A DNA stretch of 64,000 nt. It comes from Coriobacteriia bacterium (GTDB lineage Bacteria > Actinomycetota > Coriobacteriia > Coriobacteriales > UMGS124). The position numbers and the translations under genes are program-made. Of this stretch, positions 3,875 through 62,069 are shown piece after piece. The stretch's first letter is position 1. Each line of letters opens with the position of its first letter. The notes beneath the pieces are model-generated. The model searched no databases. It had not been told where the DNA came from and saw only the letters and a program-made list of their open reading frames with translations. Location: NCBI GenBank assembly GCA_963930185.1, contig CAWVLT010000016.1:128879-192878 (forward strand), given 5' to 3'.

Positions 3875-3889
3875 GCGGACACCTTTCGT

Positions 3890-9523: not shown

Positions 9524-9542
9524 TAGGTAAGTACCTTACCTA
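9524..9542. promoter_or_regulatory. Candidate HxlR operator
   Basis: TAGGTAAG-TAC-CTTACCTA has perfect 8-bp arms. It lies in the AT-rich divergent region between the HxlR gene and the flavin reductase gene. Confidence 0.35.
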
Positions 9543-9619
9543 TAAATTAGTACTTATCATGACGCATGGATAGAAGGATACTACGAGATGCCATACATCA
9601 TCGCAGAGAAAGGACCACC

Positions 9620-10183
9620 ATGAAAAAGAGCCTCGGGGCCAAGGGCGAGCTGTTCCCGCAGTCGGTGTTCATCATCGCAAGCTACGGTGAGGACGGCACC
9701 CCCAACGCCATGAACGCCGCATGGGCCGGCGAGTGCAACAGCGATGAGATATGCTTCAACATCGGCGACCACCAGTCCACCGACAACATCATCGCCAGAC
9801 GGGCCTTCACCGTGGCGCCAGCAGACGCCGCCCACGTCGTCGAGGCCGACTACTTTGGCATCGCCACCGGCCGCAAGATCAACAAGGCCGAGGCGTCCAG
9901 GCTCACGTTCACCAAGTCCGACCACGTGGACGCCCCGGTGATCGAGGAGTTCCCCCTCACCATGGAGTGCGAGGTCGTGGCCATCCAGGACTGGGAGGAT
10001 GAGAAGCGCGTCGTTGGAAAGATCGTCAACGTGCTCGCCGACGAGTCGATCCTTGACGAACAGGGACGCGTCGACTTCGACAAGATGCGCCCCATCGTCT
10101 ACGATTCCACGCGTCGCGTCTACCGTGTGGTAGGCGAGGAGGTCGGCGGTGCCTGGAAGGCCGGGACGACGCTGATGAAGTAG
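9620..10183 (+). CDS. Flavin reductase-like FMN-binding split-barrel protein (flavoredoxin-like)
   Basis: MKKSLGAKGELFPQSVFIIASYGEDGTPNAMNAAWAGE...FTVAPADAAHVVEADYFGIATGRKINK fits the Flavin_Reduct pattern. ATG 9620 follows GAGAAAGGA. Divergent from the HxlR gene. Confidence 0.8.
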   Translation: MKKSLGAKGELFPQSVFIIASYGEDGTPNAMNAAWAGECNSDEICFNIGDHQSTDNIIARRAFTVAPADAAHVVEADYFGIATGRKINKAEASRLTFTKSDHVDAPVIEEFPLTMECEVVAIQDWEDEKRVVGKIVNVLADESILDEQGRVDFDKMRPIVYDSTRRVYRVVGEEVGGAWKAGTTLMK

Positions 10184-15115: not shown

Positions 15116-15177
15116 GGGGCAAATATTCGGTCATTTTGAGGCCTCGAAGTGCCCGAAAGTGTCCGGATATTTGCCCC
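15116..15177. repeat. REP-like imperfect palindrome (family copy 1) after the permease stop
   Basis: GGGGCAAATATTCGGTCA ...26 nt... TGTCCGGATATTTGCCCC, with 16 of 18 arm positions complementary. It shares the TCGGWCA / GTCCGRATA inner arms with the copies at 28302 and 61991. Confidence 0.6.
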
Positions 15178-16697: not shown

Positions 16698-16745
16698 CCG
16701 TACCCTACAGTACCGTACTCTAGAGTACGGTACTGTAGGGTACGG
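16698..16745. repeat. Perfect 48-bp palindrome
   Basis: CCGTACCCTACAGTACCGTACTCT|AGAGTACGGTACTGTAGGGTACGG, which I checked base by base to equal its own reverse complement. It contains the LuxR-B stop codon and ends 9 nt before the DUF234 ATPase start codon. Confidence 0.9.
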
Positions 16746-18360: not shown

Positions 18361-18691
18361 CAGCCTCCCTCGGCATCCCGCGAAGCACACTATGTCAGCG
18401 CGTCTCCACATGACAAGCATACACAAACCCTCGTGGCAACTGCATAGACAACACCACTACAACACCTTTCACCTGCGAAACCCATAGAAGCCTACCTAGG
18501 GGGTGATGGCCTGGGCGCACCGAACTCGAGTGCCTACCTGCGGGGTGATGACCCATCTCGCGGAGCCGGCGTATTGTGCGACTCGTCACGCCCGGCCGCC
18601 CCGCGTGACTCGCATGCCTGACAGTTCGCATGCGTGCATAGTGGGGCAGTCGAGTTGCACGGGCACGATCAATCCAAGAAAGGAAGCCTGT

Positions 18692-20680: not shown

Positions 20681-20754
20681 GATCCGAGGCAACAAGGCGC
20701 CAGCCCCAAGCAAGGCCACGGCAACAAGGTGCCGGCATAAGAGCGCTGCAACCG

Positions 20755-20787
20755 GGAGGGCCCGTCGCAAAACGCGGCGGGCCCTCC
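20755..20787 (+). terminator. GC-rich hairpin downstream of reductase B
   Basis: GGAGGGCCCGTCGC-AAAAC-GCGGCGGGCCCTCC has 13 of 14 arm positions paired and is followed by TGCCTTTAC. The T-tract is weak. Confidence 0.45.
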
Positions 20788-20940
20788 TGCCTTTACGTCT
20801 GCCGCAAAGCCGACCGCGTTGTGGAGCCGGTCACACCACGGAGACGATCAGACCACAAGCCCGACCGCAAGGTCCAACCACGGGGCTTCTCGGCTTGGGA
20901 TCCCCTTCGCTTGCCTGGCTTGCGACGAAACGGCGAGATA

Positions 20941-21129
20941 TATCCAGAAAAAGGGGGATCGGACTGCATCGAGACGGGCGATGCGCGACCGGCGAAAGGG
21001 TATGTTTGGATAACGTCCATCGGCATACGCTTCCTACCTGCACTTTCTCTAGCCAGCACGCGGGATGTGTTACAAATCCCCGAGCTTGGGACGAGTTCCA
21101 GTGCAGTCCGATCCCCCTTTTTCTGGATA
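20941..21129. repeat. Perfect 28-bp inverted repeat pair around a 133-bp spacer (MITE-like or long hairpin)
   Basis: TATCCAGAAAAAGGGGGATCGGACTGCA at 20941-20968 is exactly complementary to TGCAGTCCGATCCCCCTTTTTCTGGATA at 21102-21129. It lies in the 850-bp convergent gap between reductases B and C. Confidence 0.8.
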
Positions 21130-21529
21130 CATCGGCCGAGTTCGCCGCACGGGGCATGGCGCGGCATGCCCCAACGTTTCTCTGGAGCGTCAATCTGCCT
21201 CTCGCGCATGCCCCTCTTCGTTAAAGAGCGCGCCATGGCACCTTTCCGTGCCCAGCAGCACCGCTCCTACGAATATAGCATCCTTGGGCACGGGGTTAGA
21301 CCGGCCTCCGTACCATCCGGAACACATGACCAACAGTCAGGATGAAAACGGCGATCCCGTCAAACTCAAGGCATATAACGTCCCGAAAGAGACATCCCAT
21401 GTCCGAGATTTGGCAGGATCACCAAGCTTGCGAAACCATTTATTTAGTAGAGCCAAACCATTTACTAGAGCCATGGGCCGCCGTAAAGGAGCGTCAGCGA
21501 CACGCAGCGGCACCGAGGGTTACAGGCCA

Positions 21530-28301: not shown

Positions 28302-28371
28302 GGGCGGCAGACTGCATACTTTCGGACATCTTCAGCGCCTAGAATGTCCGGATACATGCAGTCTGCCGCCC
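28302..28371. repeat. REP-like imperfect palindrome (family copy 2) after the reductase D stop
   Basis: GGGCGGCAGACTGCATACTTTCGGACAT ...14 nt... ATGTCCGGATACATGCAGTCTGCCGCCC. The outer 16 bp are perfectly complementary. Confidence 0.65.
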
Positions 28372-32140: not shown

Positions 32141-33751
32141 CTACGCCTGCCACTCGGCGTAGGTCCACTCCTCCCAGCCCCACTTGTCGGTGCCGTCGTT
32201 GGGCACGTTGACGAGGTTGGCGGCGTAGCCGTCGTACAGCGTGCTGTTGCACAGCGGCAGGTAGGGCAGGTCCTGGGCCAGGATGGCCTGGGCCTGCTTG
32301 TAGAGCTCCTGGCGCTGGGCGTCGTCGGCCGTGGCGTTGGCCTGCTGGCACAGCTCGTCGAACTCCGGGTTGCTGTAGCTGCCGTAATTCGAGGCAAAGC
32401 CGGTACCCAGGCAGCGCATCAGGGCGTAGGCGTCCGGGCCCATGAAGCCGCTCTGCAGCTCGATGTCAAAGTCCTTCTGCAGAGTCACCTTGTCAGAGAA
32501 GGCGTTGACCTCCGACATGATGACCTCGCAGGGCAGGCCGATCTGGGTCATCGAGTCGGCAATGAGCTTGGCGCACTCGTCGTAGCCGTTGCCCGAGAAG
32601 GCGTCCAGCGTGAAGCCGGTGATGTAGTTGCCGTCGGCGTCGGCCACGTAGCCGGCGTCCTCCAGCACCTTCTTGGCGCCCTCGGGGTCGTAGGCCGGGG
32701 CCACGTCCACGCTGTTGGAATAGTCGGCATACAGCGAGGGGTAGAAGGCGACCTCGGGGGCCTGCAGGCCGGAGAAGGCCTTGGCCGACAGGGCGTCGCG
32801 GTCGATGCACATGGCGATGGCGCGGCGCACGTTCACGTCGTCCAGGTGGCGCTCGGTGCGCGTGAGGTTGAAGATGATGCGCGCGGGCGAGGGATAGTTG
32901 TTCGGGACGACCTTGAGCGAGGGCTCGGCCTGCAGCTGGGCCACGCTGGCCGTCGGGATGGTCTGCAGGTAGTCCACCTCGGCGTTGATCAGGGCCTGCA
33001 CGCTCGTGGCGTCATCGGAGATGATGGAGTAGACCAGATTCTTGATGGCCGGGACGTGGTAGTACTCCTCGTTAGCCACCAGCGTGATGGACTGGCCCTG
33101 GCGATACTCGCCCAAGCGATAGGGGCCCGAGGTCACGGGAGTGCCCATGAGCTGGGCCGCGTCGTTGTCCATCCAGTCGACGCCCTCGACGTTGTAGATG
33201 TGCTCGGGCAGGATGAAGCCCGCGTACCAGCCGATCACGCTCACGATGGACATGTCGGGCTGGGCCATGTTGAAGACCACGGTGTAGTCGTCGGGCGCCT
33301 CGAAGCTTTCCACCGTCTGCAGGTTGGCGCTCAGGTAGTAGGCCGGGTTGTCCTTGATAGTCTGGAACGTGTACACCACGTCAGCCGAGGTCAAGGGTTC
33401 GCCGTCGCTCCACTTGAGGTCCTGGCGCAGGTGGAAGGTGATGGTCAGGCCGTCCTCGGAGGTCTCCCAGCTCTCGGCGGCGTCGGGGATGGCCTTCTTG
33501 GAGGCGTCGAGCTTGGTCAGGCGGTGGAACATGTTCTGGCACATGGCGTACGCGTTGTCGTCGGCCGTGGTAGAGGGGCACCAGCTCATGGGATCGCCGG
33601 TGTGCTTGATGATGACCGTGCTGCTCGCCTCGTCGGCGGCGAGCACCTGGCCGGGCCTGATTCCCGCAATTGCCAGCGCCGCAACGCCGGCCACGCCCAG
33701 CCCAACGAACTCGCGGCGCGAAAGACTTCTGTTTGTCTGCTCGTTCTCCAT
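32141..33751 (-). CDS. Family-5 (peptide/nickel/opine type) ABC substrate-binding protein with Tat-type signal (SBP1)
   Basis: ATG 33751 follows GAAGAAGGAG. MENEQTNRSLSRREFVGLGVAGVAALAIAGIRPGQVLAADE, followed by an SBP_bac_5-like body (..AESWETSEDGLTITFHLRQDLKWSDGEPLTSADVVYTF..). No permease or ATPase genes are adjacent. Confidence 0.85.
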   Translation of the reverse strand: MENEQTNRSLSRREFVGLGVAGVAALAIAGIRPGQVLAADEASSTVIIKHTGDPMSWCPSTTADDNAYAMCQNMFHRLTKLDASKKAIPDAAESWETSEDGLTITFHLRQDLKWSDGEPLTSADVVYTFQTIKDNPAYYLSANLQTVESFEAPDDYTVVFNMAQPDMSIVSVIGWYAGFILPEHIYNVEGVDWMDNDAAQLMGTPVTSGPYRLGEYRQGQSITLVANEEYYHVPAIKNLVYSIISDDATSVQALINAEVDYLQTIPTASVAQLQAEPSLKVVPNNYPSPARIIFNLTRTERHLDDVNVRRAIAMCIDRDALSAKAFSGLQAPEVAFYPSLYADYSNSVDVAPAYDPEGAKKVLEDAGYVADADGNYITGFTLDAFSGNGYDECAKLIADSMTQIGLPCEVIMSEVNAFSDKVTLQKDFDIELQSGFMGPDAYALMRCLGTGFASNYGSYSNPEFDELCQQANATADDAQRQELYKQAQAILAQDLPYLPLCNSTLYDGYAANLVNVPNDGTDKWGWEEWTYAEWQA

Positions 33752-33917
33752 GCTTGGCAACTCCTTCTTCTCTGCTCGCGGCCTTGCGTCCGCAATCTCT
33801 CGGCCCACGGCCGCCAGGCCCGCGCCGCCCACGCACGCGCCCACGCACACCAATCCGGCTGATTGCGAAAGACGCGGCTCATAAGCGGGGCAGGCTCGGT
33901 CCGCCTCCCGGCCTCCC

Positions 33918-33955
33918 AGAAAAGCAGAAGGGGACGCACCAGGCGGCGCGTCCCC
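33918..33955 (-). terminator. Rho-independent terminator between SBP2 and SBP1
   Basis: The minus strand reads GGGGACGC-GCCGCCTGGT-GCGTCCCC followed by TTCTGCTTTTCT. Confidence 0.6.
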
Positions 33956-34130
33956 TCGGCTTGCTGTAGCATGATACGACTTTAACGGTAGGAATTGCGG
34001 CGAGAACCGCCTGCCGTCGCAACCCACGCGCCGTCATCATAGAACCGCGAGCCAACCGGCCAGCAGAGCGGTCACGACCCAGACCGGCAGGCGCTGACCC
34101 GCAGCCTGGACACGTCCGGCGCTCGGTGCC

Positions 34131-35741
34131 CTACGCCTGCCACTCGGCGTAGGTCCACTCCTGCCAGCCCCACTTGTCGGTGCCGTCGTTGGGCACGTTG
34201 ATGAGGTTGGCGGCGTAGCCGTCATAGCTCATGCTCGCGCACAGCGGCAGGTAGGGCAGGTCCTGGGACAGGATGGTCTGGGCCTGCTTGTAGAGCTCGG
34301 CGCGCTGGGCGTCGTCGCCCGTGGAGTTGGCCTGGGTGCACAGCTCGTCGAACTCGGGGTTGCTGTAGCCGCCGTAGTTGGAGCCGAAGCCCGTGCCAAA
34401 GCAGCGCATGAGCGCATATGCGTCCGGGCCCATGAAGCCGGTCTGCAGCTCGATGTCGAAGTCGCGCTGCTGCGACACCTTGTCGCTCCAGGCGCTGGGC
34501 TCGGAGATGATGACCTCGCACTGCAGGCCGATCTCGCTCATCGAGGAGGCGATGAGCTTGGCGCACTCGTCGTAACCATTGCCGGAGAACGCGTCGATGG
34601 TAAGGCCGGTGATGTAGTTGCCGTCGGCGTCCGCGGTGTAGCCGGCGTCCTCGAGGACCTTCTTGGCGCCCTCGGGATCATAGGCCGGGGCCACGTCCAC
34701 GTCGTTGGAGTACTCGGCGTACAGCGAGGGGTAGAAGTGGGTCTCGGGCGGCATGATGCCGGAGTAGGCCTTGGCCGACAGCGCGTCGCGGTCGATGCAC
34801 ATGGCGATGGCGCGGCGCACGTTCACGTCATCGAGGTGACGCTCGGTGCGGGTGAGGTTGAAGATCATGCGCGCGGGCGAGGGGTACTCGTTGGGCACGA
34901 CCTTGAGCGAGGGCTCGGCCTGCAGCTGGGCCACGTTGGGCGTGGGCAGCGTGTCGCGGTAGTCGATCTCGGCGTTGAGCAGGGCCTGGACCGCCGTCGA
35001 GTCGTCGCTGATGATGGAGTAGATAAGCGTCTTGATGGCCGGCACGTGGTAGTACTCTTCGTTGGCCACCAGCGTGATGGACTGGCCCTGGACGTACTCG
35101 GCCAGCTTGTAGGGGCCAGAGGTCACGGGGATGTTCGTGACCAGGCCAGCCTCGTTGTCCATCCAGCTCACGCCCTCCACGTCATAGATGTGCTTGGGCA
35201 GGATGAAGCCAGCGTACCAGCCAATGGTACTCACGATGGACATGTCGGGCTGGGCCATGTGGAAGACCAGCGTGTAGTCGTCCAGGACCTCGAAGCTCTC
35301 AACCGTCTGCAGGTTGGCGCTCAGGTAGTACTCGGGCGTGTCACGGATGGTCTGGAACGTGTAGGCGGCATCCTCGGCCGTCAGCGGCTCGCCGTCCGTC
35401 CACTTGAGGTCCTGGCGCAGGTGGAAGGTGATGGTCAGGCCGTCATCGGAGGTCTCCCAGCTCTCGGCGGCGTCGGGGATGGCCTTCTTGGAGGCGTCGA
35501 GCTTGGTGAGGCGGTGGAACATGTTCTGGACCATGTTGTAGGAGCCGTCGTCGGCGATGGTCGACGGGCACCAGCTCTTGGGATCGGTCTTGGCGGACAC
35601 GATGACCGTGCTGCTCGCCTCGTCGGCGGCAAGCACCTGGCCGGGCTTGACGCCGGCCACGGCGAGGCCGGCGAGCGCGGCGGCGGACAGACCGACGAAC
35701 TCGCGGCGAGAGAGCCCTTCCTGACTCTGCAGTTCCTTCAT
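34131..35741 (-). CDS. Family-5 ABC substrate-binding protein with Tat-type signal (SBP2, paralog of SBP1)
   Basis: ATG 35741 follows AAAGGAGAAAG. MKELQSQEGLSRREFVGLSAAALAGLAVAGVKPGQVLAADE. Collinear with and highly similar to SBP1. Confidence 0.85.
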   Translation of the reverse strand: MKELQSQEGLSRREFVGLSAAALAGLAVAGVKPGQVLAADEASSTVIVSAKTDPKSWCPSTIADDGSYNMVQNMFHRLTKLDASKKAIPDAAESWETSDDGLTITFHLRQDLKWTDGEPLTAEDAAYTFQTIRDTPEYYLSANLQTVESFEVLDDYTLVFHMAQPDMSIVSTIGWYAGFILPKHIYDVEGVSWMDNEAGLVTNIPVTSGPYKLAEYVQGQSITLVANEEYYHVPAIKTLIYSIISDDSTAVQALLNAEIDYRDTLPTPNVAQLQAEPSLKVVPNEYPSPARMIFNLTRTERHLDDVNVRRAIAMCIDRDALSAKAYSGIMPPETHFYPSLYAEYSNDVDVAPAYDPEGAKKVLEDAGYTADADGNYITGLTIDAFSGNGYDECAKLIASSMSEIGLQCEVIISEPSAWSDKVSQQRDFDIELQTGFMGPDAYALMRCFGTGFGSNYGGYSNPEFDELCTQANSTGDDAQRAELYKQAQTILSQDLPYLPLCASMSYDGYAANLINVPNDGTDKWGWQEWTYAEWQA

Positions 35742-36309
35742 GCTACTTTCTCCTTTGTGTCGCATGGACATGCCTAGGACGTGCCTCGCGCGCCCGATCC
35801 GCCCAACGGGCCAACCACCCACACTCGAACGGTGGCACCAAGGGGCGGACAGGGCGAACACCAATAGCAGGCACCGTCCATTGTAGGCCATTCCGCACCG
35901 TATCGATTAATGAACCTGAAATAGCATGTACCTTTCTTTTCACACTGGCACGCCAACTTACTCATCAAACCAGCAGCCTACGGACATAATCAGCGAGCTG
36001 GAACAGAACACGCTATTTCTTAGGAAATATTGTTATATAGGACGTGGCCCGAGCAGCTTGCCGTGCGCAGGCAATAGGTACGACGATCGTGCAGGGCCAT
36101 ACGCCGACAGAGTTTGCGCATCCCTGATAGCACGGGCGGGTGTTACCATATGGCGAAGTGGAGGCGTTAGGCGTTGTCGCGCCGTAGGGTGCCGCCGATT
36201 GGGCATGTAGGGCAGCAAACGCGCGGGCTGGCCCTGCAGGGCGATCCCAGGTGAGACGACCGCACGACCGTGAGGCAATCGCGCGTTGATCGCACATCAG
36301 GAGGCCGCG

Positions 36310-40542: not shown

Positions 40543-41349
40543 CTAGCCGGCCGTCCTCGCCAACAGGGCAAAAACCGCCCAGAGCAGTGCATACAACGTC
40601 GGCTGGTGAACTAGGTATACGACAAGCGAGCGCCGCCCAAGCCACTCGAGCGGACGACTTACGCTCGGCAGTAGATGCGGCAGCAGCCCGCGATCGCGCA
40701 CGAGACAGTGCAGGAAATATCCCGCCACGAACAGAAAGCCCCACGGGATGAGCCCGTAATAGTCTGTGGAATAAAAGCCCAGCTCGGGAAATCCCAGATA
40801 GGTGGTCAGAAGGTTGGCATAGAGCGCATCGGGCAGCTCGAGCAGCACCAGATCACCCACGCCGAGATACCCGTGACGTGCACCTTTGGTCAGCACGAAG
40901 AGCAAGAGGCTCGCCACAAGCCCAACGACGGCGTTGCATCGCCTGAGCAGCGGGTCGGCAAGTCGGACAAGCACCATGCAGGACCCGATGAGCGTGAGCA
41001 CGCCAAACACCACGCGGTCCTGCGGCATCACCACAAGCGTCACGCCCGTGATCAGCATCCCGGCCGCAAACACGACTGCGCCGCGCTTGAGCGCATGGCG
41101 GCTCAGTGGCTGGCAGAACCCCGAAAGCAGAATGAAGGCGCACCCCGTGGCCTGCTGCCACAGGTCGACCGCGATCGAATCGAACCACGGCCAGTCCATG
41201 CCAAACAGGTACGTAGCATCCCACGCGGCGTGATACGCGACCATGCTCACGAGCGCAAGCCCACGCAGTGCGTCCAGGAGCGCATAGCGCGTCGAACTCT
41301 TGGTCTCGTCCAAATGATCACCGCCCGCCGCTAGGAGAAGCCATATCAT
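40543..41349 (-). CDS. DUF1624 / heparan-alpha-glucosaminide N-acetyltransferase-like membrane protein
   Basis: RYALLDALRGLALVSMVAYHAAWDATYLFGMDWPWF is the characteristic N-terminal motif. Polytopic, 268 aa. Confidence 0.7.
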   Translation of the reverse strand: MIWLLLAAGGDHLDETKSSTRYALLDALRGLALVSMVAYHAAWDATYLFGMDWPWFDSIAVDLWQQATGCAFILLSGFCQPLSRHALKRGAVVFAAGMLITGVTLVVMPQDRVVFGVLTLIGSCMVLVRLADPLLRRCNAVVGLVASLLLFVLTKGARHGYLGVGDLVLLELPDALYANLLTTYLGFPELGFYSTDYYGLIPWGFLFVAGYFLHCLVRDRGLLPHLLPSVSRPLEWLGRRSLVVYLVHQPTLYALLWAVFALLARTAG

Positions 41350-41461
41350 ACGCCCTGCCGCATGCCACGCACGTAAGCGGTCCGCAAAATCAACCGAACC
41401 GCCTCGGCAGCGTCAGCGATGCGCCGCCAGGCCATCGCACCAGAACACCCCGCAGCACCCT

Positions 41462-41702
41462 CGCGCGCCAAAATCTCCCTGCGATGGACAAAGTTTTCGG
41501 TTGGGAGAAGATCCGTCGAGGCATCCGGCCGCCCACGTCGTTCTCAGAACACAAAAGTGTTACGAATCTATCAGCTAGAAGCTATTTTCGCAGATAATTG
41601 GCCAAAATCGTAACACTGCCACAATTCGTCGGATCGGAAGCCAAAAACAGAAGTTTCTCCCAACCGCAATATTTGTCCCGCGGAAAAGAATTTTGGCGCG
41701 CG
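41462..41702. repeat. About 240-bp long-hairpin repeat element, copy A (MITE-like)
   Basis: The termini CGCGCGCCAAAATCTCCCTGCGATGGACAAAGTTTTCGGTTGGGAG and CTCCCAACCGCAATATTTGTCCCGCGGAAAAGAATTTTGGCGCGCG form imperfect inverted repeats. A second copy with near-identical termini is at 45472-45712. It has an internal hairpin AGTGTTACGA/TCGTAACACT. Confidence 0.7.
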
Positions 41703-41768
41703 AGCCGCCTTGCGAACCGTCCTGCACCACAATATGGGTCACCACCAGAAGCCTAGGCCGAGGACTCG

Positions 41769-41813
41769 CAAAACAAAGGGCGACCAGGCCGGAAGGCCCC
41801 AGCCCAGTCGCCC
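41769..41813 (-). terminator. Rho-independent terminator after SBP3
   Basis: The minus strand reads GGGCGAC-(22-nt loop with an inner GGCC/GGCC hairpin)-GTCGCCC followed by TTTGTTTTG. Confidence 0.6.
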
Positions 41814-41889: not shown

Positions 41890-43533
41890 CTACGCGCTCC
41901 ACTCCGCGAAGGTCCATTCCTCCTTGCCCCACTGCCCCGCACCGTCAGATCCGGTATTGACGAGACCAGCGGCATAGGCATAGTAGATCGACCACGTGGC
42001 CAGCGGTAGATACGGCAGGTCCTCGGCAAGGATCGCCTGCGCCTGGCGATACAGCTCGGCGCGCTCGGCGTCGTCGCCAGTCGCATTGGCCTGGTTGCAC
42101 AGGTCATCGAACTCGGGGTTGCTATAGAAGCCGTAGTTCGACGCGAAGTCCGTGCCCAGGCGCGACATCATGGCATACGCATCCGGGCCCATGAACCCCG
42201 CCTGGAGCTCGATGTCGAAGTCTCGCTGGACGCTCACCTTGTCGGACCAGGCGTTCATCTCCGACATGTTGACCTCGCACTGCAGGCCAATGGCATCCAT
42301 GTTGGAAGCGAGCAGCCTGGACACCTGCTCGTACTCGGTACCCGAGAAGGCGTCGATCGTGAAGCCAGTGATGAAGTAGCCGTTCTCGTCGGCCACGTAC
42401 CCGGAGTCCTCGAGCAGCTTGCGCGCGCCTTCGGGATCGTAGGCGGGAGCGACGTCCTCCTGGTTGGAGTACTCGCCGGCAATGGTAGGATAGAACGCCA
42501 CCTCGGGCACCGAAACGCCGCCCAGGGCCTTCTCGCATATGGCCTCGCGGTCGATGCACATCGCTATCGCGCGACGAACGTTCACGTCGTCCAGATGGCG
42601 CTCCGTGCGATTCAGGTTGAAGATGATGCGATACGGCGAGGGGTCCTGCTGTAGCACCATGCGGATGTTGGGATCTGCAAGCACGCTGTCGATGTAGGCG
42701 GACGGAACCTTCTTGAGCAGGTCGGTCTCGCCGTTCTGCAATGCCTGCACCGCCGTGGAGTCGTCGGTGATGATGGAGTAGATGAGGTTGGGAATCGCCG
42801 GCACATGCCAGTAGTTCTCGTTGGCAACCAGGCTGATGGACTGGCCGGGCACGTACTCGCTCAGCTTGTAAGGACCCGAGGTCACGGGCGTGTTGACGAG
42901 CTGCGCCGCGTCGTTGTTCTCCCAGAGCACACCCTCGACGTCGTAGATGTGCTTGGGCATGATGAAGCACGCATACCATGCCAGCGTACCCACGAGCGAC
43001 ATGTCGGGGGCGTTGAGGTTGATGACGAAGGTGTAGTCGTCCGGGGCCTCGAAGCTCGCCACGTTCTGCAGGTTGGCACTGACATAGCACTCGGGGTGGT
43101 CCTTGATGTACTGGAAGGTGTACACCGCATCCTGGGCAGTCAGTGGCTCGCCGTCAGACCACACGAGATCCTGACGCAGGTGGTAGGTGATGGCCAGGGC
43201 GTCATCGGAGGTCTCCCAGCTCTCGGCCGCATCAGGCACGACCTGCGAGTTCACGTCAAGCTTGGCCAGGCGGTTGAACATGTTCTGGACGATGGGCCAG
43301 GCGTTGTCATCGGCAAGGACATCGGGGCACCACGATGCCGGGTCACCGGTCTGCGTCACGATGACGGTGTCCCCGCCGTCGGCAAACGCGACGTTTGCCA
43401 TGCCCGGCCCCGACGCGATCCCGGCCGCCCCGGCGGCCGCAAGACTGGCCGCACCCATCAGGCCGACAAACTCACGACGAGAGACCTCTCCCATGCCGGC
43501 GAGCCTCTTGGCGCTGTCCTTCATGCTGTTCAT
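41890..43533 (-). CDS. Family-5 ABC substrate-binding protein with Tat-type signal (SBP3)
   Basis: MNSMKDSAKRLAGMGEVSRREFVGLMGAASLAAAGAAGIASG. The body is collinear with SBP1, SBP2 and SBP4. RBS AAGGAAGGGGA. Confidence 0.85.
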   Translation of the reverse strand: MNSMKDSAKRLAGMGEVSRREFVGLMGAASLAAAGAAGIASGPGMANVAFADGGDTVIVTQTGDPASWCPDVLADDNAWPIVQNMFNRLAKLDVNSQVVPDAAESWETSDDALAITYHLRQDLVWSDGEPLTAQDAVYTFQYIKDHPECYVSANLQNVASFEAPDDYTFVINLNAPDMSLVGTLAWYACFIMPKHIYDVEGVLWENNDAAQLVNTPVTSGPYKLSEYVPGQSISLVANENYWHVPAIPNLIYSIITDDSTAVQALQNGETDLLKKVPSAYIDSVLADPNIRMVLQQDPSPYRIIFNLNRTERHLDDVNVRRAIAMCIDREAICEKALGGVSVPEVAFYPTIAGEYSNQEDVAPAYDPEGARKLLEDSGYVADENGYFITGFTIDAFSGTEYEQVSRLLASNMDAIGLQCEVNMSEMNAWSDKVSVQRDFDIELQAGFMGPDAYAMMSRLGTDFASNYGFYSNPEFDDLCNQANATGDDAERAELYRQAQAILAEDLPYLPLATWSIYYAYAAGLVNTGSDGAGQWGKEEWTFAEWSA

Positions 43534-43570
43534 GGCGTCCCCTTCCTTTTGCTTCCTACACGATGGGCTC

Positions 43571-45085
43571 CTACGCGATGTCGTGGGTACGAACGTAATC
43601 GGCGACGAGCAGGCCGCAGGCCAGCTGCACCGTCACGAGCTTCTTGATGGGTATGACCTCGTAGTCGATCTTGGACTCAAGAAGCCGGCAGATCTCCCCG
43701 TGATGCGCGAGCGCCGTGTCGCGCGCGGCCTCGAGGGCACAGCGGGCCGCATGCTCGTCCGGCCGCTCCCCTGCGGGCCCGACAGCGCCAGCACACCGGT
43801 CGGCGCCGTCCCCGCCGACATCCGACGGAGACGCTCCCAGCTTGGCGAGCTCAACCTCGCACGCGCGTGCGACCTGAGCCGCAGCGCGCGCCTTGAAGAG
43901 GCGGCGCACCAGCAGGTTGTCGAATTCGTCCGCCACGGTGGCCGGCTGGGCATACTCGGGGTTCTCCCGCACCATCGCACGTGTGGAATCGTCGACCTCA
44001 CGCCCCAGAAACTCCTCAGTGACATGGGCAAAGCCGTTATCCGCGCCCATGAGATGCCGAACCGGCTCGTACGCCGCGCGGATACGCTCGGTGTCCCGCT
44101 CCTCCTCGTCCAGGCGCTCGAGCATCACGTCGCACTTCGTGCGCCCCGTGGGGGTCAAGTCGCCAATCTGCTCGCTATAGAAGTAGGGAATCTCGTTGAT
44201 GAACCCAACGGCCTGCCCGTCTGCACATGCGTAGTCAAAGCTCGCCGCACCCGAGTCGATAGCCTGGGCCGGATCGCCGCCCGGCTCGCCATACCGCTCG
44301 AGATAGTCGTACTGGTCGCGCACCGAGAGCGCCCGGTACAGCGCCGGCGCCCAGCGCTCGGCATAGGGCACCTCCGCCTCGCCCAGGTGCAGGTCGAGGC
44401 CCTGGTCGGCGACGATGGCACGCATCTCCTCCCAGATCTCGGGGGTCCTGTGCGTCTCGTACCAGTACACGCCACCGAAGCTCGAGTTATGCAGCGAGTA
44501 GACGAACCGCGGCCTGACGGCATCGACCAGGGCCATGACCGCACGCGTCTCGGGCAGCGGCGCGTCGAAGTGCAGCGTCTTGTAGTCGATGGGGAATGTC
44601 CACTCAACCTGGTCGTAGAAGGCAGGGCGATAGATGTTACGCGAGTAGTTAGTGAGATTGAACGGCCCCTTGAGCCAGGTGTTGAGCTCAAGCGAGTCGG
44701 CGTCCCATGCCTTGACGAAGTACCAAGTGTAGCCGAGCTCGCGGCGCAGGTCGGCGTCTGCGGCCAGACAGCGGGACAGATGCTCAATGAGCATTGCGCC
44801 GATTGGCTCGTTGGGATGCGGCACGCCCAGCAGCAGGGCCGCGGGACGCTGGGGATCGGGCAGGGGGATGCCCTCGCCCGCAGACGCGCCCGAAGCGCCG
44901 CGTGGCTCGCCGACACGCAGGCACAGCAGCGGCCTGCCTTTGCGCGTGGCGCCGACCTCGAAGAGCGTGACCGTGTCGGGAAATTCGGCGGCAAGCGCAC
45001 GGCTGCTCTCGTCAAGCTCGTCAGGCGAAAGAAACACCTGGTAATCGGGAATCGTATCGATGACCTCTTGATAGATTCGCTTCAC
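43571..45085 (-). CDS. Cytosolic M14-like zinc carboxypeptidase/amidase paralog 1
   Basis: GTG 45085 follows GGGGAGG. No signal peptide. GATRKGRPLLCLRVG...LLLGVPHPNEPIG (HxxE), NYSRNIYRP, PLPETRAVMALV, YSLHNSSFGGVYWY (second zinc His). A helical C-terminal extension follows. Confidence 0.7.
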   Translation of the reverse strand: MKRIYQEVIDTIPDYQVFLSPDELDESSRALAAEFPDTVTLFEVGATRKGRPLLCLRVGEPRGASGASAGEGIPLPDPQRPAALLLGVPHPNEPIGAMLIEHLSRCLAADADLRRELGYTWYFVKAWDADSLELNTWLKGPFNLTNYSRNIYRPAFYDQVEWTFPIDYKTLHFDAPLPETRAVMALVDAVRPRFVYSLHNSSFGGVYWYETHRTPEIWEEMRAIVADQGLDLHLGEAEVPYAERWAPALYRALSVRDQYDYLERYGEPGGDPAQAIDSGAASFDYACADGQAVGFINEIPYFYSEQIGDLTPTGRTKCDVMLERLDEEERDTERIRAAYEPVRHLMGADNGFAHVTEEFLGREVDDSTRAMVRENPEYAQPATVADEFDNLLVRRLFKARAAAQVARACEVELAKLGASPSDVGGDGADRCAGAVGPAGERPDEHAARCALEAARDTALAHHGEICRLLESKIDYEVIPIKKLVTVQLACGLLVADYVRTHDIA

Positions 45086-45471
45086 GATGACCTCCCCAGA
45101 TCAGACGTCAGGCCGCCCTCACGCGCCACGAGGAGGCGCGTCGCGTGTCCGAACGTAGGCACACAGCGTAGGTGCACAGCGCGCAGCCATTGCGTATCAG
45201 CGGGCCCCAACGTGCCTGGCCCCGCGAGGTGCCCCCGGGCGTGTTTTCAGTCAGCCTAAGCGCTTGCGAAGCACCAAATGTTACCAGTAAGAAAACATCC
45301 GGCCAGTGGCGATACCGCATCGGTTTCCGCGCAATCCAATGACGTCCTCAAAGCGGTCACGGGTAGTGGCGCACGCGTACGCGACGCGCACGCAGGCGGC
45401 AAGCGCGCAAGTGGCATGCCGCCCTCGCAAGAACCTCTTGGTCGGCGTGCCGAAACGCGTCGCGATGCCTT

Positions 45472-45712
45472 CGCGCGCCAAAATTTCCCTACGATGGACA
45501 AAGTTTTCGGTTGTGAGGTAGTTTGTCGAGGATGTCAGCTTCTAGGATCGGCCTCGGAGCCCCCAAGACATCGTGAACTAGGTAACTTAAGATCATTTCC
45601 GCTGGTCATCGCTGCAGGCTTGGCATTGCCAGTATTCGTCAGGTCGAACCCTCCGAAACGAAGTCCCTCACAACCGCAATATCTGTCCCGCGGACAAGAA
45701 TTTTGGCGCGCG
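45472..45712. repeat. About 240-bp long-hairpin repeat element, copy B (MITE-like)
   Basis: The termini CGCGCGCCAAAATTTCCCTACGATGGACAAAGTTTTCGGTTGTGAGG and CCTCACAACCGCAATATCTGTCCCGCGGACAAGAATTTTGGCGCGCG match copy A at most positions. The central ~150 bp has diverged. Confidence 0.7.
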
Positions 45713-45769
45713 GACATTGGCGAGATCCCCCACGGGCCATCCAGCAATGAGTCCACCAAGTATGCCAGC

Positions 45770-45818
45770 AACAAAAAGCGGGCGGCGGAACCGGTTGAAC
45801 TCGGTTCTGCCGCCCGCC
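45770..45818 (-). terminator. Rho-independent terminator after SBP4
   Basis: The minus strand reads GCGGGCGGCAGAACCG-AGTTCAA-CCGGTTCCGCCCGCCGC followed by TTTTTGTTG. Confidence 0.65.
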
Positions 45819-45925
45819 TCACGTGCTCACATGCGCGGCGCATTAGGCGATCTTGCCAGCGCCGTCAAGTAGGTGCACGACGCAGCCGCGCACACGTCGC
45901 CGCGCCAACGCTCGCACTGCAACGC

Positions 45926-47545
45926 CTACTCGGTCCACTCCGCGTAGGTCCACTCCACGCCGGCCCACTTGCCGGCACCATCGGCGCCGGTGTTGATGAG
46001 GCCGGCGGCGTAGGCATCGTTGTAAAGTGCCGAGACGATGTTCACGTAGGGCAGGTCCTGCGAGAGGATGGTCTGCGCCTGACGGTACAGCTCGGCGCGC
46101 TTGTCATCGTCGGCCGTGGCGTTGGCCTCCTCGCACAGCTCGTCGAACTCGGGGTTGCTGTAGCTGCCGTAGTTGGAGGCAACGCCGGTACCCCAGCGCA
46201 GCTTCAGGGCGTAGGCGTCCGGACCGAGGAAACCGCTCTGGATCTCGATGTCAAAGTCGTGCTGCTGGCCAACCTTGTCACTCCAGGCATTCATCTCAGA
46301 GAGAACGACCTCGCAGGGCAGACCGATGGCAGTCATCTCGGCGGCGATGAGCTTAGCGCACTCCTCGTTGCCGGTGCTCGAGAAGGTATCGATGGTGAAG
46401 CCGGTGATGTAGTTGCCGTTTTCGTCAGGAGTATAGCCGGCCTCCTCCAGAACGGCCTTGGCGCCCTCGGGATCGTAGGCGGGAGCCACGTCCTCGGTGT
46501 TGGACCACACGCCCCACTGGGCGGGATAGAAGGCGACCTCAGGCGGGTTGATGCCACCGAACGCCTTGGCCGAGATGTCATCGCGGTTCACGCACATGCA
46601 GATGGCGCGACGCACGGCCGGGTCGTCGAGGTGACGCTCGGTGCGCAGCGTGTTGAAGATCATGCGCGTGGGCGTCTGGTCGGGACGCTCGACGATGCGC
46701 AGCGACGGGTCGGCCTTGACCTGCTCGACGCTAGGCGTAGGCACGTTGAGCAGCACGTCGATCTCGGCATTGAGCAGGGCCTGAACGGCCGTGGTGTCAT
46801 CGGTGATGATGGAGTAGATCAGGTGCTTGATGGCCGGCACGTGGAAGTACTCCTCGTTGGCCTCCAGCTCGATGCTCTGGCCCTGGGTGTAGCCAACCAC
46901 CTTGAAGGGGCCGGAGGTCACGGGGATGTTGGTGAGCAGGGAGTTCTCGTTGTCGTTCCACTCCACGCCCTCGACGTCGTAGATGTGCTTGGGCATGATA
47001 AAGCCGGCATACCAGCCAATGGTGCTGATCATCGACATGTCGGGCTTCACCAGGTTGAAGACCACGGTGTAGTCGTCGGGGGCCTCGAAGGTGTCGACGT
47101 TGGTCATCGTGGTGTGCAGGTAGCACTGGGCGTTGTCCTTGATGCCCTGGAACGTGAAGACTACGTCCTCGGAGGTCAGGGGCTCGCCGTCGGTCCACTT
47201 GAGGTCCTGGCGCAGGTGGAAGGTGATGGTCAGGCCGTCATCGGAGACGTCCCAGCTCTCGGCGGCGTCGGGGATGCAGCTGCGCGTCACGTCGAGCTTG
47301 GTGAGGCGATGGTAGATGTTCTGCATCGCGTAGTAGCCGTTGTCATCGGGCGTCACGTCGGGGCACCAGCCCTGCGGGTCGCCACCGGCCTGTAGGATGA
47401 CGGTGTCGTTACCGGCGGCCAGGGCGGTCTGGCCGTTGAAGCTGATGAAGCTCGCGCCGGCCAGAGAGACGCCGGCGGCCAGGGCGGCCTTGACGAGCTG
47501 ACGACGGGTGATGCCGTCGACCATCTCAGCGTTCTTGATGTCCAT
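45926..47545 (-). CDS. Family-5 ABC substrate-binding protein with Tat-type signal (SBP4)
   Basis: ATG 47545 follows GAGGAGGG. MDIKNAEMVDGITRRQLVKAALAAGVSLAGASF. The body is collinear with the other three SBPs. Confidence 0.85.
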   Translation of the reverse strand: MDIKNAEMVDGITRRQLVKAALAAGVSLAGASFISFNGQTALAAGNDTVILQAGGDPQGWCPDVTPDDNGYYAMQNIYHRLTKLDVTRSCIPDAAESWDVSDDGLTITFHLRQDLKWTDGEPLTSEDVVFTFQGIKDNAQCYLHTTMTNVDTFEAPDDYTVVFNLVKPDMSMISTIGWYAGFIMPKHIYDVEGVEWNDNENSLLTNIPVTSGPFKVVGYTQGQSIELEANEEYFHVPAIKHLIYSIITDDTTAVQALLNAEIDVLLNVPTPSVEQVKADPSLRIVERPDQTPTRMIFNTLRTERHLDDPAVRRAICMCVNRDDISAKAFGGINPPEVAFYPAQWGVWSNTEDVAPAYDPEGAKAVLEEAGYTPDENGNYITGFTIDTFSSTGNEECAKLIAAEMTAIGLPCEVVLSEMNAWSDKVGQQHDFDIEIQSGFLGPDAYALKLRWGTGVASNYGSYSNPEFDELCEEANATADDDKRAELYRQAQTILSQDLPYVNIVSALYNDAYAAGLINTGADGAGKWAGVEWTYAEWTE

Positions 47546-47694
47546 AGCAGTCCCTCCTCTTATCTTGGGCACGGCCCTATGCCGTTGCCTCGTCTTATGT
47601 GGGCGGGCGACGCGCCTTGATGCCGGCGCATGTGCGCGCCACATGCACGCAACGCCACCCACCCACGGATGACCATGTTCTCGAGCGACGCCCT

Positions 47695-49116
47695 CTACAG
47701 GTCGTGATGACGCACGTAGTCGGCCTCGAGCAGGCCGCAGGCAAGCTGGATGGTCACCAGCTTCTTGATCGGGATGACCTGATAGTCGATCTCCTGCTCA
47801 AGCTGCTCGCACAGGGCGTCGCGACGCGCGGCCGCGGTGTCGCGAACCTGCTCGAGCGTGGCACGCTTCTCGGCGTTCTGCTCCCCGGCGGCATCCATGC
47901 GGGCAAGCTCACTTTCGCAGGCGCGCACCAGCAGCGTGATGGTGCGGCCGGCAAAGAACTTGCGCAGCTGTAGGCTGTCGAACGCCTCGGCCACCGTGGC
48001 CGGCTTGGCAAAGTCGGGGTTCTCGCGCACCATGGCACGGGTGGCGTCGTCCATGCCGCCACCACGCGTGAACTCGGTGAACGCGCGCAGGAAGTGGTCG
48101 GTCGGGTCGATGAGCGGGCTCACCTGCTCCAGAAGCTCGCGCATCTTGGAGAACTCCGCCTCGCGCTCGTCCAGGCCCTGCAGAGCGACGTCGCAGCGCG
48201 TGCGATCGATGGGCGACTTGTCACGGATGCGCTCATCAAAGAAGTAGGGCATCTCATTGACGAACTCGAAGCTGCCGTAGCGCGTGAGAGCATAGTCGGA
48301 GCTCGACGTGCCGGCCGAGATGTTGGCTGCCGGGTCGCCCTTGCCATACTTTTCCTGATAGTCGTACTTGTCGACCGTGGTGAGCAGCTTGTAGAGGGCC
48401 GGCGCCCACTCCTCGGCGTAGGGGGCCTCCGGCTCGCCCAGGTGCAGCGGCAGGTCCTGCTCCTCGACGATGGCGCGCATCTCCTCCCAGATCTCCGGCG
48501 TCTTGTGGGTCTGGTACCAGTAGACGCCGCCGAAGCCCGAGTTGTGCAGCGAGTACATGAAGCGCGGCTTGACCTTGTCGATGAGCGCCATCATGGCCTC
48601 GGTCTCGGGCAGCGGCTCGTGGAAGTGCAGCGTCTTGTAGTCGATGGGGAACGTCCACTCGACCTGCTCATAGCTTGCCGGGCGGAAGAAGTTGCGCGTG
48701 TAGTTGCTCAGCGTGAACGGCCCCTTGATCCAGGTGTTGAGGGCCAGCGAGTCGGCGTCCCAGGCCTTCACGAAGTACCAGGTGTAGCCCAGCTCGTCGC
48801 GCAGCTCCTTGTCGGAGGCAAGCCAGCGAGAGAGATGCTCGATGAGCATGCAGCCGATGGGCTCGTTGGGGTGCGGCACGCCCATCACCAGCGCGGTGGG
48901 GCGCCTCTCGCCCTCGGGCAGGTCGGCAGGCTCGGGGTCGCCCACCTTCAGGCACAGCAGCTCGCGGCCCTCGCGCGTGTGACCTATGGGAAAGATCTCC
49001 ACGACCTCGGGGAACTCGGCTGCCAGCGCGCGGCTGCTCTCGTCGAGCTCGTCGGGGGTGAGGAACACCTGATAGTCGGGGATGGTGTCCACGACCTTCT
49101 GGTAGATCGGCTTCAT
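47695..49116 (-). CDS. Cytosolic M14-like zinc carboxypeptidase/amidase paralog 2
   Basis: ATG 49116. GHTREGRELLCLKVG...LVMGVPHPNEPIG, NYTRNFFRP, PLPETEAMMALI, YSLHNSGFGGVYWY. It shares the C-terminal tail of paralogs 1 and 3. Confidence 0.7.
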   Translation of the reverse strand: MKPIYQKVVDTIPDYQVFLTPDELDESSRALAAEFPEVVEIFPIGHTREGRELLCLKVGDPEPADLPEGERRPTALVMGVPHPNEPIGCMLIEHLSRWLASDKELRDELGYTWYFVKAWDADSLALNTWIKGPFTLSNYTRNFFRPASYEQVEWTFPIDYKTLHFHEPLPETEAMMALIDKVKPRFMYSLHNSGFGGVYWYQTHKTPEIWEEMRAIVEEQDLPLHLGEPEAPYAEEWAPALYKLLTTVDKYDYQEKYGKGDPAANISAGTSSSDYALTRYGSFEFVNEMPYFFDERIRDKSPIDRTRCDVALQGLDEREAEFSKMRELLEQVSPLIDPTDHFLRAFTEFTRGGGMDDATRAMVRENPDFAKPATVAEAFDSLQLRKFFAGRTITLLVRACESELARMDAAGEQNAEKRATLEQVRDTAAARRDALCEQLEQEIDYQVIPIKKLVTIQLACGLLEADYVRHHDL

Positions 49117-49145
49117 GTGATGCAGCGTCCTTTCTGTTTGTCCAC

Positions 49146-49185
49146 CGCGTGCCCGTCTCGCCTTCACATGCGAGACGGGCACGCG
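49146..49185 (-). terminator. Perfect 16-bp-stem hairpin between M14 paralogs 3 and 2
   Basis: CGCGTGCCCGTCTCGC-CTTCACAT-GCGAGACGGGCACGCG. There is no T-tract, so it may be an RNA-processing, stability or attenuation element rather than a full terminator. Confidence 0.4.
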
Positions 49186-49204
49186 AGGGGGCGAGTCCGC
49201 GTGA

Positions 49205-50605
49205 TTAGAAGTGGTCGCGCACGTACTCGGCCATCATGAGGCCGCAGGAGAGCTGGATGGTCACGAGCTTCTTGATCGGGACCACCTGGTAGTCAAACGA
49301 CTCCTCCAGCTCGGCGGCGAGCTTCTCGTAGGCCGGCTTGGCGGCCGCCAGGGCCTTCTCGAGGGCGGCGCGCTTCTCGGGGTTGTCCTCGCCCGACTCG
49401 TCCATCGCGGCGAGCTCGCTTTCGTTGGCGCGCACCAGCATGCCAAACGAGAGCAGCTTGTAGAACTTGGTGACGAGCAGGTTGTCGAACACCTGCGCCA
49501 CGGTGGCGGGCTCGGCAAAGGCCGGGTCCTCGGCGATCATCTTGCGCGTGGCGTCGTCGGAGCTGTCGCGGGTGAACGCCTGGATTGCCAGCATGAACGG
49601 GTTCTCGGCATCCATGTACTGCTGGGAGATGGCGAGGGTGTCGCGCAGGAAGGCGCTCGTCTCCTTGCCCCAGTCCAGGCTCTCGGTCACCACGTCGCGG
49701 CGGATACGCTCGGTGGGCGACTGGTCGTCGATGCGCGGGTCGTAGAAGTAGGGCAGCTCGGTGAGGAAGGTGAACGAGTTGTACTTCTTGGCGGAGTAGC
49801 CACCCGAGCAGTCACCGCAGACGATGGCCTCCGCCGGGTCCTTGTCCGGGTCGCCGTACTTCTCCAGGTAGTCGTATTCCTGCTCGATGCCCAGCTCCTC
49901 GTAGACCGCCGGCGCCCACAGCACGCAGTAGGGGGCCTCGGGCTCGCCCAGGTTGAGCGGCACGCCCTGGTCGATGGCGACCTCGCGCATGGCGTCCCAG
50001 ATCTCGGGCGTCTTCTTGGACTGGTACCAGTACACCCCGCCGAAGCCGGCGTTGTGCAGCGAGTAGATGAAGGCGGGCTTGATCTCGTCGATCAGGTCCT
50101 TCATGGCCGTGGTCTCGGGCAGCGGCGCGTCAAAGTGCAGCGTCTTGTAGTCGATGGGCCACGTCCAGTCCACCTGCTTGAAGCCCGCCGGGCGGAAGAA
50201 GTTGCGCGAGTAGTTGGTGATGGTGAAGGGGCCCTTGAGCCAGCCCTTGTTGAGCTCCAGGGAGTCGGCGTCCCAGTTCTTGACGATGTACCAGGTGTAG
50301 CCAAGCTCCTCGCGCAGCTCGGCGTCTGCGGCCAGGCAGCGGGAGAAGTGCTCGGCGAGCATGGTGCCGATGGGCTCGTTAGGGTGCGGCGTGCCAAAGA
50401 CGAGGGCGTTCTTGGGACCGTTGCCTATCTTGAGGCACAGCAGCGGCCGATCCTTGCGGGTGCGCCCGATCTCGAAGAGCTCCACCGTCTCGGGGAACTC
50501 GGCGGCAAGCGCACGGCTGCTCTCGTCGAGCTCGTCGGGGGTGAGGAACACCTTGTAGTCGGGGATGGTGTCAATGACCTTCTGGAACACGGGCTTGAGT
50601 GCCAT
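49205..50605 (-). CDS. Cytosolic M14-like zinc carboxypeptidase/amidase paralog 3
   Basis: ATG 50605 follows AAGGAGG. GRTRKDRPLLCLKIG...LVFGTPHPNEPIG, NYSRNFFRP, PLPETTAMKDLI, YSLHNAGFGGVYWY. Confidence 0.7.
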   Translation of the reverse strand: MALKPVFQKVIDTIPDYKVFLTPDELDESSRALAAEFPETVELFEIGRTRKDRPLLCLKIGNGPKNALVFGTPHPNEPIGTMLAEHFSRCLAADAELREELGYTWYIVKNWDADSLELNKGWLKGPFTITNYSRNFFRPAGFKQVDWTWPIDYKTLHFDAPLPETTAMKDLIDEIKPAFIYSLHNAGFGGVYWYQSKKTPEIWDAMREVAIDQGVPLNLGEPEAPYCVLWAPAVYEELGIEQEYDYLEKYGDPDKDPAEAIVCGDCSGGYSAKKYNSFTFLTELPYFYDPRIDDQSPTERIRRDVVTESLDWGKETSAFLRDTLAISQQYMDAENPFMLAIQAFTRDSSDDATRKMIAEDPAFAEPATVAQVFDNLLVTKFYKLLSFGMLVRANESELAAMDESGEDNPEKRAALEKALAAAKPAYEKLAAELEESFDYQVVPIKKLVTIQLSCGLMMAEYVRDHF

Positions 50606-50657
50606 GGACGTCCTCCTTTGAACATGCACCGATGTAAAAACGCAATGTAAAACGTAT

Positions 50658-56392: not shown

Positions 56393-57108
56393 GGAATACA
56401 GGCGCTAGGATATGGGCGATGGGATACGGGCGACGGGCCAGATCCGAGGCCACACCGGGGACAGGTAAGCTGCGAACTGGGGCGCCGGTATGCTGGGGTG
56501 CCGGCATGCTTGCGTGCCGGCGTTCTGGTGGGTAGCGAGCAGGCCGATGGCGACGAGCGGGCCGACGGGCAGTCGAGAAGTTGCCCGCACCTCTATCTTG
56601 CACGGAAAAACGGGCCCGTATGGAAAGAAATGGCACTTTGGAACGAGTCTACTGCGAGCCTACTGTTTTGGTAGGATTATTTAATTATGGGATCAGTGCA
56701 TCCGGTATGAACATTCGCTAGCCTGACCTAAAGGTAGTTTGTCAGACTCCCCCTTTGTCTTGCCTTGACGCATTCCAACTCGTTCCAAAGCCCGAAAACT
56801 TTCCAGATGGGCATCGTTTTGCGTGCAAGTTCTTACATGCGAGTCCTTTCATGCAAGTTCATCTGGTTGTCATCTGGTCACATGGCTTGCCCCTTCACCA
56901 TCCCTTGCCGCCCGCCGTACCCCGCCGCGCCCCGCCTGCCGCACCCCACCAGCCATGCTTTGGTTTGCCCACCACGCCCCACCCCCACGCTACACTTTGC
57001 CGCTGACCCCCTACGCTTCCCGGGACTTCGCTTTGAGCTTTGCCCATCTTTCGTGAATCTGGCCTCACAAGCCCGCTTCCCTGGTATGCAGCTCGATTTT
57101 TTAGGTAC

Positions 57109-61990: not shown

Positions 61991-62069
61991 AGGCGCAGAG
62001 TGCACGATCTCGGACAGTTGAGGCGAAATATCGCCCGCTTTACGTCCGAATATATGCACTCTGCGCCCT
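61991..62069. repeat. REP-like imperfect palindrome (family copy 3) after the ABC exporter stop
   Basis: AGGCGCAGAGTGCACGATCTCGGACAG ...24 nt (inner hairpin GGCGAAATATCGCC)... ACGTCCGAATATATGCACTCTGCGCCCT. Confidence 0.6.

Follow-up and report, generated by a model that had tools for sequence, protein, structure and literature searches.

In an uncultured, gut-type member of the Coriobacteriia related to Eggerthellaceae, a non-coding sequence able to fold into one long hairpin lies just beyond the terminator of an SBP_bac_5 gene, and a similar sequence recurs some 4 kb away. We asked what kind of element this is, and whether its copies arose by separate insertion or by duplication of the genes beside them. 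The analysis covered a contig stretch of 64,000 nucleotides, referred to here as the window, which is rich in FAD-dependent reductases with LuxR-type regulators. The closest named homologues of its MatE protein are ~50–53% identical and come from Raoultibacter, Gordonibacter, and Eggerthella, and a "Coriobacteriia bacterium" MAG encodes one at 70% identity.

Architecture of the hairpin elements

Copy A was delimited by inverted-repeat search, hairpin folds, and an arm HMM as a 245-bp foldback element at positions 41460–41704, with no strand assigned. Column-by-column comparison of the arms resolved the left arm (41460–41509) into an outer block, CTCGCGCGCCAAAAT, an 11-nt mismatched stretch, GGACAAA, a 6-nt mismatched stretch, and GGTTGGGAGAA. 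The right arm (41655–41704) was located by inverted-repeat search, which gave two arms of 50 nt each with 78% complementarity. Between them lies a variable core of 145 nt (41510–41654), with a GC content of ~0.48 against ~0.62–0.65 around it, and with an inner inverted repeat, AGTGTTACGA...TCGTAACACT. Copy B, at 45472–45712, is built in the same way; the same search returned arms of 55 nt each (45472–45526 and 45658–45712), 75% complementary and separated by a core of 131 nt. In the two copies, core GC is ~0.48–0.52, again compared with ~0.62–0.65 in the surroundings. Each arm is bipartite, with CGCGCGCCAAAAT... as its outer and GGACAAAGTTTTCGGTTGGGAG as its inner block. The end motif reads CTCGCGCGCCAAAAT...GGACAAAG, and the element termini are CTCGCGCG / CTTGCACG.

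The two copies are 87% identical across their arms and 59% identical across their cores. An earlier, sequence-only reading of this DNA had proposed an inverted-repeat element of ~240 bp forming one long hairpin, with a second copy at 45472–45712 that has similar termini and a diverged center. Both proposals are borne out by our data. The same reading described the arms as imperfect inverted repeats of ~45 nt, which is correct in kind and slightly short in length, the measured arms being 50–55 nt. Folding of copy A gave −102 kcal/mol on the plus strand (z = −7.3) and −110 kcal/mol on the minus strand (z = −6.3), and the minus strand of copy B gave −95.7 kcal/mol (z = −4.2). For both copies, none of the dinucleotide shuffles was equally stable, and each forms a single long hairpin beyond what shuffled sequence attains. 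The arm HMM matched the arms of copy A with E = 1e-17 to 1e-19. Taken over the window, the elements are 229–245 bp long, with terminal inverted repeats of 48–55 nt that are 75–83% complementary. The ORFs that cross them differ between copies, which indicates that they have no coding capacity.

Genomic context and further copies

Along the minus strand, the order is ABC ATPase, M14_C, M14_B, SBP_B, terminator, B, M14_A, SBP_A, terminator, A, and a DUF1624/HGSNAT-like gene. By Pfam, the minus-strand genes upstream of element A (41890–45085) are an M14 peptidase (43571–45085) and an SBP_bac_5 gene (41890–43533), and those upstream of element B (45926–49182) are likewise an M14 peptidase (47695–49182) and an SBP_bac_5 gene (45926–47662). 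Each SBP gene is followed by an intrinsic terminator on the same strand. The SBP_A terminator occupies 41769–41813, with its stem at 41813–41778 and a U-tract running to ~41769. The SBP_B terminator, at 45769–45817 (stem ~45817–45778), was missed by the consensus scan and was identified from its fold (−46.3 kcal/mol, z = −7, then UUUUUGUUG) and U-tract. The distance between the U-tract end and the element is ~64 nt at A and ~55 nt at B, and the order given in the earlier reading, namely SBP stop, terminator, ~60 nt, and element, holds at both loci.

The window contains four SBP_bac_5 and three M14 carboxypeptidase genes (32141–35891 and 41890–50629), which are mutually 56–76% identical, and more paralogous SBP_bac_5/M14 arrays occur on other contigs and in related species (L144; L145). 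For the DUF1624/HGSNAT-like gene downstream of A (40543–41349, minus strand), no homologues at 58–99% identity were found. Its nearest named relatives are in Firmicutes and Bacteroidales MAGs, which suggests that the gene was acquired horizontally.

The sequence-only reading had also stated that the DNA between terminator and element is unrelated at the two loci, and that this speaks for independent insertion and against segmental duplication. The first part agrees with our alignments. Similarity between the A and B flanks from stop codon to element was not significant (p = 0.29, local alignment against 2000 shuffles), and neither was that between the terminator-to-element spacers alone (p = 0.35). 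Similarity of the downstream flanks was marginal (p = 0.053), and the local alignment of the two cores was significant (p = 0.0015). The second part fails on the age of the genes. SBP_A and SBP_B are 59% identical as proteins and 52% identical at four-fold sites, and the corresponding values for M14_A and M14_B are 64% and 58%; these paralogs are old, with synonymous sites near saturation. Neutral intergenic DNA of equal age would be unalignable anyway, and unrelated flanks are therefore weak evidence against duplication.

Elements A and B are, in addition, in register within two adjacent paralogous modules, with spacings of 4036 (SBP), 4055 (M14), and 4010 (element). The simplest history for this pair is a tandem duplication of the entire M14-SBP-terminator-element unit. 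Separate insertion is favored in part and opposed in part: a third copy elsewhere and the similarity of cores whose flanks are dissimilar speak for it, and the register of A and B speaks against it. Core similarity without flank similarity fits elements that are younger than their surroundings, or a core that is constrained. Put more broadly, the choice is between constraint on the entire element and gene duplicates that predate the elements. The old M14-SBP duplication may have brought A and B with it, or each module may have acquired its element on its own.

The third copy, C, lies at 7443–7673 of contig L144 (contig_4223), which derives from the same sample as ERZ28758157 contig_4225. Its arms are 49 nt long, 80% complementary, and 133 nt apart. 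Its neighbors are an M14 gene on one side and two SBP genes on the other, 62–76% identical to their window counterparts. It lies 60–62 nt past an intrinsic terminator, and the asymmetry of the inner arm block places it in the orientation opposite to the flanking genes. All three copies thus lie 55–64 nt past an intrinsic terminator, and their spacers have no significant similarity. An HMM made from the arms of A, B, and C matched all six arms with E = 1e-15 to 1e-19. As copy C is on another contig and in another gene context, in-register duplication leaves it unexplained. The apparent association of A, B, and C with M14/SBP clusters is biased, because copy C was found through an SBP query.

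Two more elements of the window share the architecture. E4 (56597–56829, no strand assigned) is 233 bp long, with 52-nt arms that are 75% complementary and 129 nt apart (z = −5.9). It lies 205 nt past the MatE stop and has the 11-mer CCGAAAACTTT in the corresponding part of its arm, by a pattern fitted post hoc. E1 (20921–21149, no strand assigned) is 229 bp long, with 48-nt arms that are 83% complementary and 133 nt apart (z = −9.5), and is located between convergent reductase genes. The HMM made from A, B, and C alone detected neither, and we therefore list E4 as a probable distant relative and E1 as related through its architecture only. No other inverted repeats comparable to A, B, E1, and E4 were present in the window. 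The three related copies and the two elements of like architecture come from ~86 kb, counting the window plus L144 if the latter is conspecific. With these additions, the proposal that the hairpin is a repeated non-coding element and not a one-off stands.

A second conspecific assembly (ENA ERZ28758157 contig_4225; L008, L009) contains A, B, and E4 in the same places and the same orientation, almost unchanged, and comparison of the two conspecific assemblies revealed no empty sites for any of them. E1 is situated inside a 4.6-kb LuxR plus reductase segment that is absent from the conspecific contig L146, ~180 nt from the breakpoint, and its absence from L146 is seen only as part of this larger difference. 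The segment (~16770–21330, corresponding to 6835–7100 of L146) comprises a LuxR-type regulator (16720–18426), an FMN_bind plus FAD_binding_2 reductase (18503–20680), and E1, and the L146 genes on either side are 96–97% identical to those of the window. It is a strain-variable accessory reductase cassette.

In related species, long hairpins lie downstream of MatE, as E4 does, at 11542–11794 of L141 and ~11427–11686 of L138 (MAG GCA_018368455.1). Their arms consist of two or three 26-nt units with 41-nt spacing. An HMM search found no sequence homology between these elements and E4, and what they have in common is architecture and position. Of the four species compared, three have such an element downstream of MatE and one, L142, lacks it, the MatE proteins of the related species being ~70% identical. 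In L138, a separate 151-bp hairpin (9538–9688) is found upstream of MatE, with ends GGCCAGGAATC...GATTCCTGGCC that resemble the CTGGCAGGAATC units of the MatE-downstream element.

Beyond these genomes, pattern searches returned nothing that we regard as a further member. The pattern GCGCCAAAATN{9,13}GGACAN8GGTTG had seven single matches in 185,579 species-representative genomes, a set that does not include the source species; the matches were in unrelated phyla and approximately equal to the number expected by chance. The pattern CCGAAAACTTTN{0,2}CCAN{9,13}TTTTG had at least 120 matches in JGI metagenomes and 8 in IMG/VR, and none of those listed had a matching second arm; the best second-arm complementarity among the listed matches was 53%, compared with 72–74% in true elements. 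Two more patterns run against IMG/VR gave 0 matches and 7 single matches, the latter judged to be chance. The plasmid and phage collections held no blastn match to the elements, and in Rfam no family overlapped any element, either at the gathering score or at E ≤ 5. A literature search for descriptions of such repeat families in Coriobacteriia found none, and the family is, as far as these searches show, undescribed in this class.

Mobile element or cis-acting hairpin

The explanation that we favor, without quite calling it probable, is a lineage-specific family of MITE-like foldback elements, whose bipartite arms serve as ends for an enzyme encoded elsewhere and whose copies are tolerated just beyond terminators. 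The family is repeated, non-coding, and intergenic near terminators, with terminal inverted repeats, hairpin potential, and arms that are better conserved than cores. From these features we infer mobility, a trans-acting enzyme, and a target preference. The arms, with two binding blocks per end, would be recognized by an enzyme, a transposase or recombinase, whose gene lies elsewhere in the genome, and copies would settle in "safe" DNA ~55–64 bp past intrinsic terminators. Matched ends would keep the elements movable, which would hold the arms conserved and complementary while the cores drift. The inner arm block (GACAAA...TTGGGA) is loosely like TnsB binding sites in Tn7 ends, a resemblance to which we give no weight.

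In support of the MITE-like explanation, there are three clearly related copies in two gene contexts on two contigs. Elements of like architecture (E1, E4, and those of L138 and L141) occur in the lineage, and species differ in whether they have the MatE-downstream element. The terminator-proximal position of A, B, and C, arms that are 87% identical between A and B beside cores at 59% and flanking four-fold sites at 52–58%, core similarity without flank similarity, and the paired arm changes described below count on the same side. Prokaryotic MITEs are shorter than 500 bp, have terminal inverted repeats, are AT-richer than the genome, are intergenic, and form stable stem-loops (PMC10969869). 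The direct repeats at their flanks erode as copies age, and in type II MITEs conservation is confined to the ends (PMC10969869). Examples are Coxiella QMITE2, with a core of 113–145 bp, and Geobacter Chunjie, at 178–235 bp (PMC10969869). The elements described here resemble QMITE2, Chunjie, and the Correia elements of Neisseria in being small, non-coding, and intergenic, with an AT-richer variable core and a long stem-loop, and they resemble type II MITEs in that the ends are better conserved than the interior.

Several observations sit poorly with a MITE-like family. Typical MITE terminal repeats are 4–30 bp (PMC10969869) and more perfect, whereas the arms here are ~50 nt, bipartite, and 75–80% matched, with mismatched stretches that are conserved. 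No flanking direct repeat of at least 5 nt was present outside the element when boundaries were varied by ±8 nt, so the target-site duplication that the sequence-only reading had suggested looking for was not found. The terminal CGCGCG is self-complementary and is therefore indistinguishable from a duplicated target. As that reading had stated, no transposase is encoded in the window: among ~40 ORFs compared with Pfam, of which a few had no match at all, there was no transposase, integrase, or resolvase domain. Unlike for established MITEs, neither a partner insertion sequence (in the window or in plasmid and phage collections) nor polymorphism of the transposition type was seen, A, B, and E4 being present in both assemblies compared, and the clearly related copies number three. 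The chance-level matches of the arm pattern in the species-representative genomes also weigh on this side. The in-register pair A and B is explained by duplication without mobility, and the position of A, B, and C in M14/SBP clusters could reflect a locus-specific function. We know of no MITE family with a counterpart to the position ~60 nt past terminators.

Other extragenic repeats offer partial parallels. ERIC/IRU elements and REPINs are also extragenic imperfect palindromes that form long hairpins, often near gene 3′ ends, and that conserve structure more than sequence. They are smaller (ERIC ~127 bp, REPINs ~100 bp) and belong to Proteobacteria. REP units are short palindromes with a RAYT transposase, whereas the present elements have arm blocks without self-complementarity, and the window has no RAYT or IS200-like gene and no Y1-transposase domain.

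A possible alternative, on balance an unlikely one, is that the hairpin is a functional cis element, part of an ancestral M14-SBP-terminator-element module, duplicated with that module and kept for the peptide-uptake and peptidase clusters. It could act as a hairpin in RNA, within a 3′ end made by read-through or within a long 5′ leader (an RNase III site, stabilizer, extra terminator, or insulator), or as a symmetric region for protein binding in front of the following gene. Such a role would account for A and B lying in register at ~4-kb spacing in paralogous modules, for the presence of A, B, and C in M14/SBP clusters, and for arms that are 87% conserved beside genes with 52–58% identity at four-fold sites. 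The recurrence of an element behind MatE in three species with MatE proteins ~70% identical, and the lack of signs of mobility, point the same way.

Paired changes in the arms also fit a cis function. Among A, B, and C, 5 of 53 arm pairs have changed on both sides and still pair, compared with 0–2 in slid controls, and the arm covariation score was 0.107, against 0.074 ± 0.019 in shuffles, of which 24 of 500 equalled it. Judged from these three independent sequences, the data are suggestive of maintained complementarity, although template-switch repair in quasi-palindromes could give the same pattern of paired changes without any function.

Against a cis function, copy C occupies another relative position, between M14 and SBP, and is turned opposite to its neighbors, and the related M14/SBP cluster on L145 carries no element. 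E1 is flanked by two convergent 3′ ends, a setting in which a promoter or leader makes no sense, and such a role therefore cannot suit every member. Sigma-70-like promoter sites were absent from A, B, and E1, and E4 had one weak match at chance level. The wobble-type mismatches of the arms showed no strand bias (all p ≥ 0.077), which fits a symmetric element acting at the DNA level. We had considered that the strand matching the genes folds better and has more G-U pairs; this was dropped, as copy C and the L138 and L141 elements reverse the tendency and the wobble count is unbiased. Finally, the A/B/C group, E1, and E4 are too different to be recognized by one DNA-binding protein, and no Rfam family was matched even at the relaxed threshold.

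It is improbable that the arms enclose an inverton, in which a recombinase encoded elsewhere would flip the 131–145-bp core and so switch the downstream gene on or off. Gut-bacterial invertible promoters have inverted repeats flanking a short segment upstream of operons. The elements resemble them in that, at A, B, C, and E4, inverted repeats surround a lower-GC segment of ~140 bp with an operon downstream, a size within the ~130–230 bp seen for invertons, and several loci of one architecture would be expected for a single global invertase. The core orientation of A, B, and E4, however, is identical in both conspecific assemblies, the window encodes no recombinase, and the promoter that such a switch needs was lacking as described above. 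Compared with those of invertons, the arms are far longer and less perfect, being matched at only 75–83%, E1 has no gene to drive, and a literature search for invertons in Eggerthella turned up nothing relevant.

We give similarly little credence to the idea that the hairpins serve an undescribed system by which DNA is placed or exchanged ~55–64 bp past terminators or, equivalently, that they are the borders of accessory modules (M14-SBP and LuxR-reductase). If true, it would help to explain the growth of large paralogous arrays in Eggerthellaceae-type genomes.

Least credible is an attC-like role, in which the hairpins would end gene cassettes (M14-SBP; LuxR plus reductase) and be substrates of a recombinase that shuffles accessory genes: a gene module is followed by a hairpin twice in tandem, structure and mismatched (unpaired) stretches are conserved between copies while sequence varies, and E1 lies ~180 nt inside one end of a segment missing from a conspecific contig, but E1 does not abut the breakpoint, no integrase is found nearby, the elements are 230–245 bp as opposed to 57–141 bp for attC, they lack the GTTRRRY boxes (R/L boxes) typical of attC, and the modules are 59–64% identical paralogs, not shuffled cassettes. 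To our knowledge, integrons are not typical of this phylum.

Should the MITE-like family prove mobile, it would mark genome plasticity in a lineage of gut bacteria with large paralogous reductase and transporter arrays, would be a likely cause of MAG assembly breaks, and, through its placement ~60 nt past terminators, would point to an unusual target choice. A conserved cis element would instead add a new motif, regulatory or structural, linked to peptide-uptake clusters. The practical value is modest under either reading.

Other hairpins and putative regulatory features of the window

A second, shorter family of hairpins, ~62–76 bp in length, is present at 15116–15177, 28302–28371, and 61992–62067, in each case ~30–60 nt past a stop codon. 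Their stems share the motif ...TCGGAC / GTCCGRATAYATGCA..., and this genome may carry them as a REP-like or terminator-type repeat. A perfect 48-bp palindrome (16698–16745; CCGTACCCTACAGTACCGTACTCT / AGAGTACGGTACTGTAGGGTACGG) lies just upstream of an ATPase_2/DUF234 gene (15259–16689, minus strand). The conspecific contig L146 has it in almost unchanged form, and the palindrome resembles an operator.

At 3938–4007 on the minus strand, a match to the AdoCbl-II (B12) riboswitch scored 32.4 bits (E = 0.001), against a gathering score of 36.5. It extends ~15 nt into the annotated 5′ end of a DUF4430 gene (3083–3952, minus strand) and is probably a real riboswitch. Close by, at 4182–5444 on the minus strand, is a gene for a HipA-family toxin kinase with HipA_C and Couple_hipA domains.
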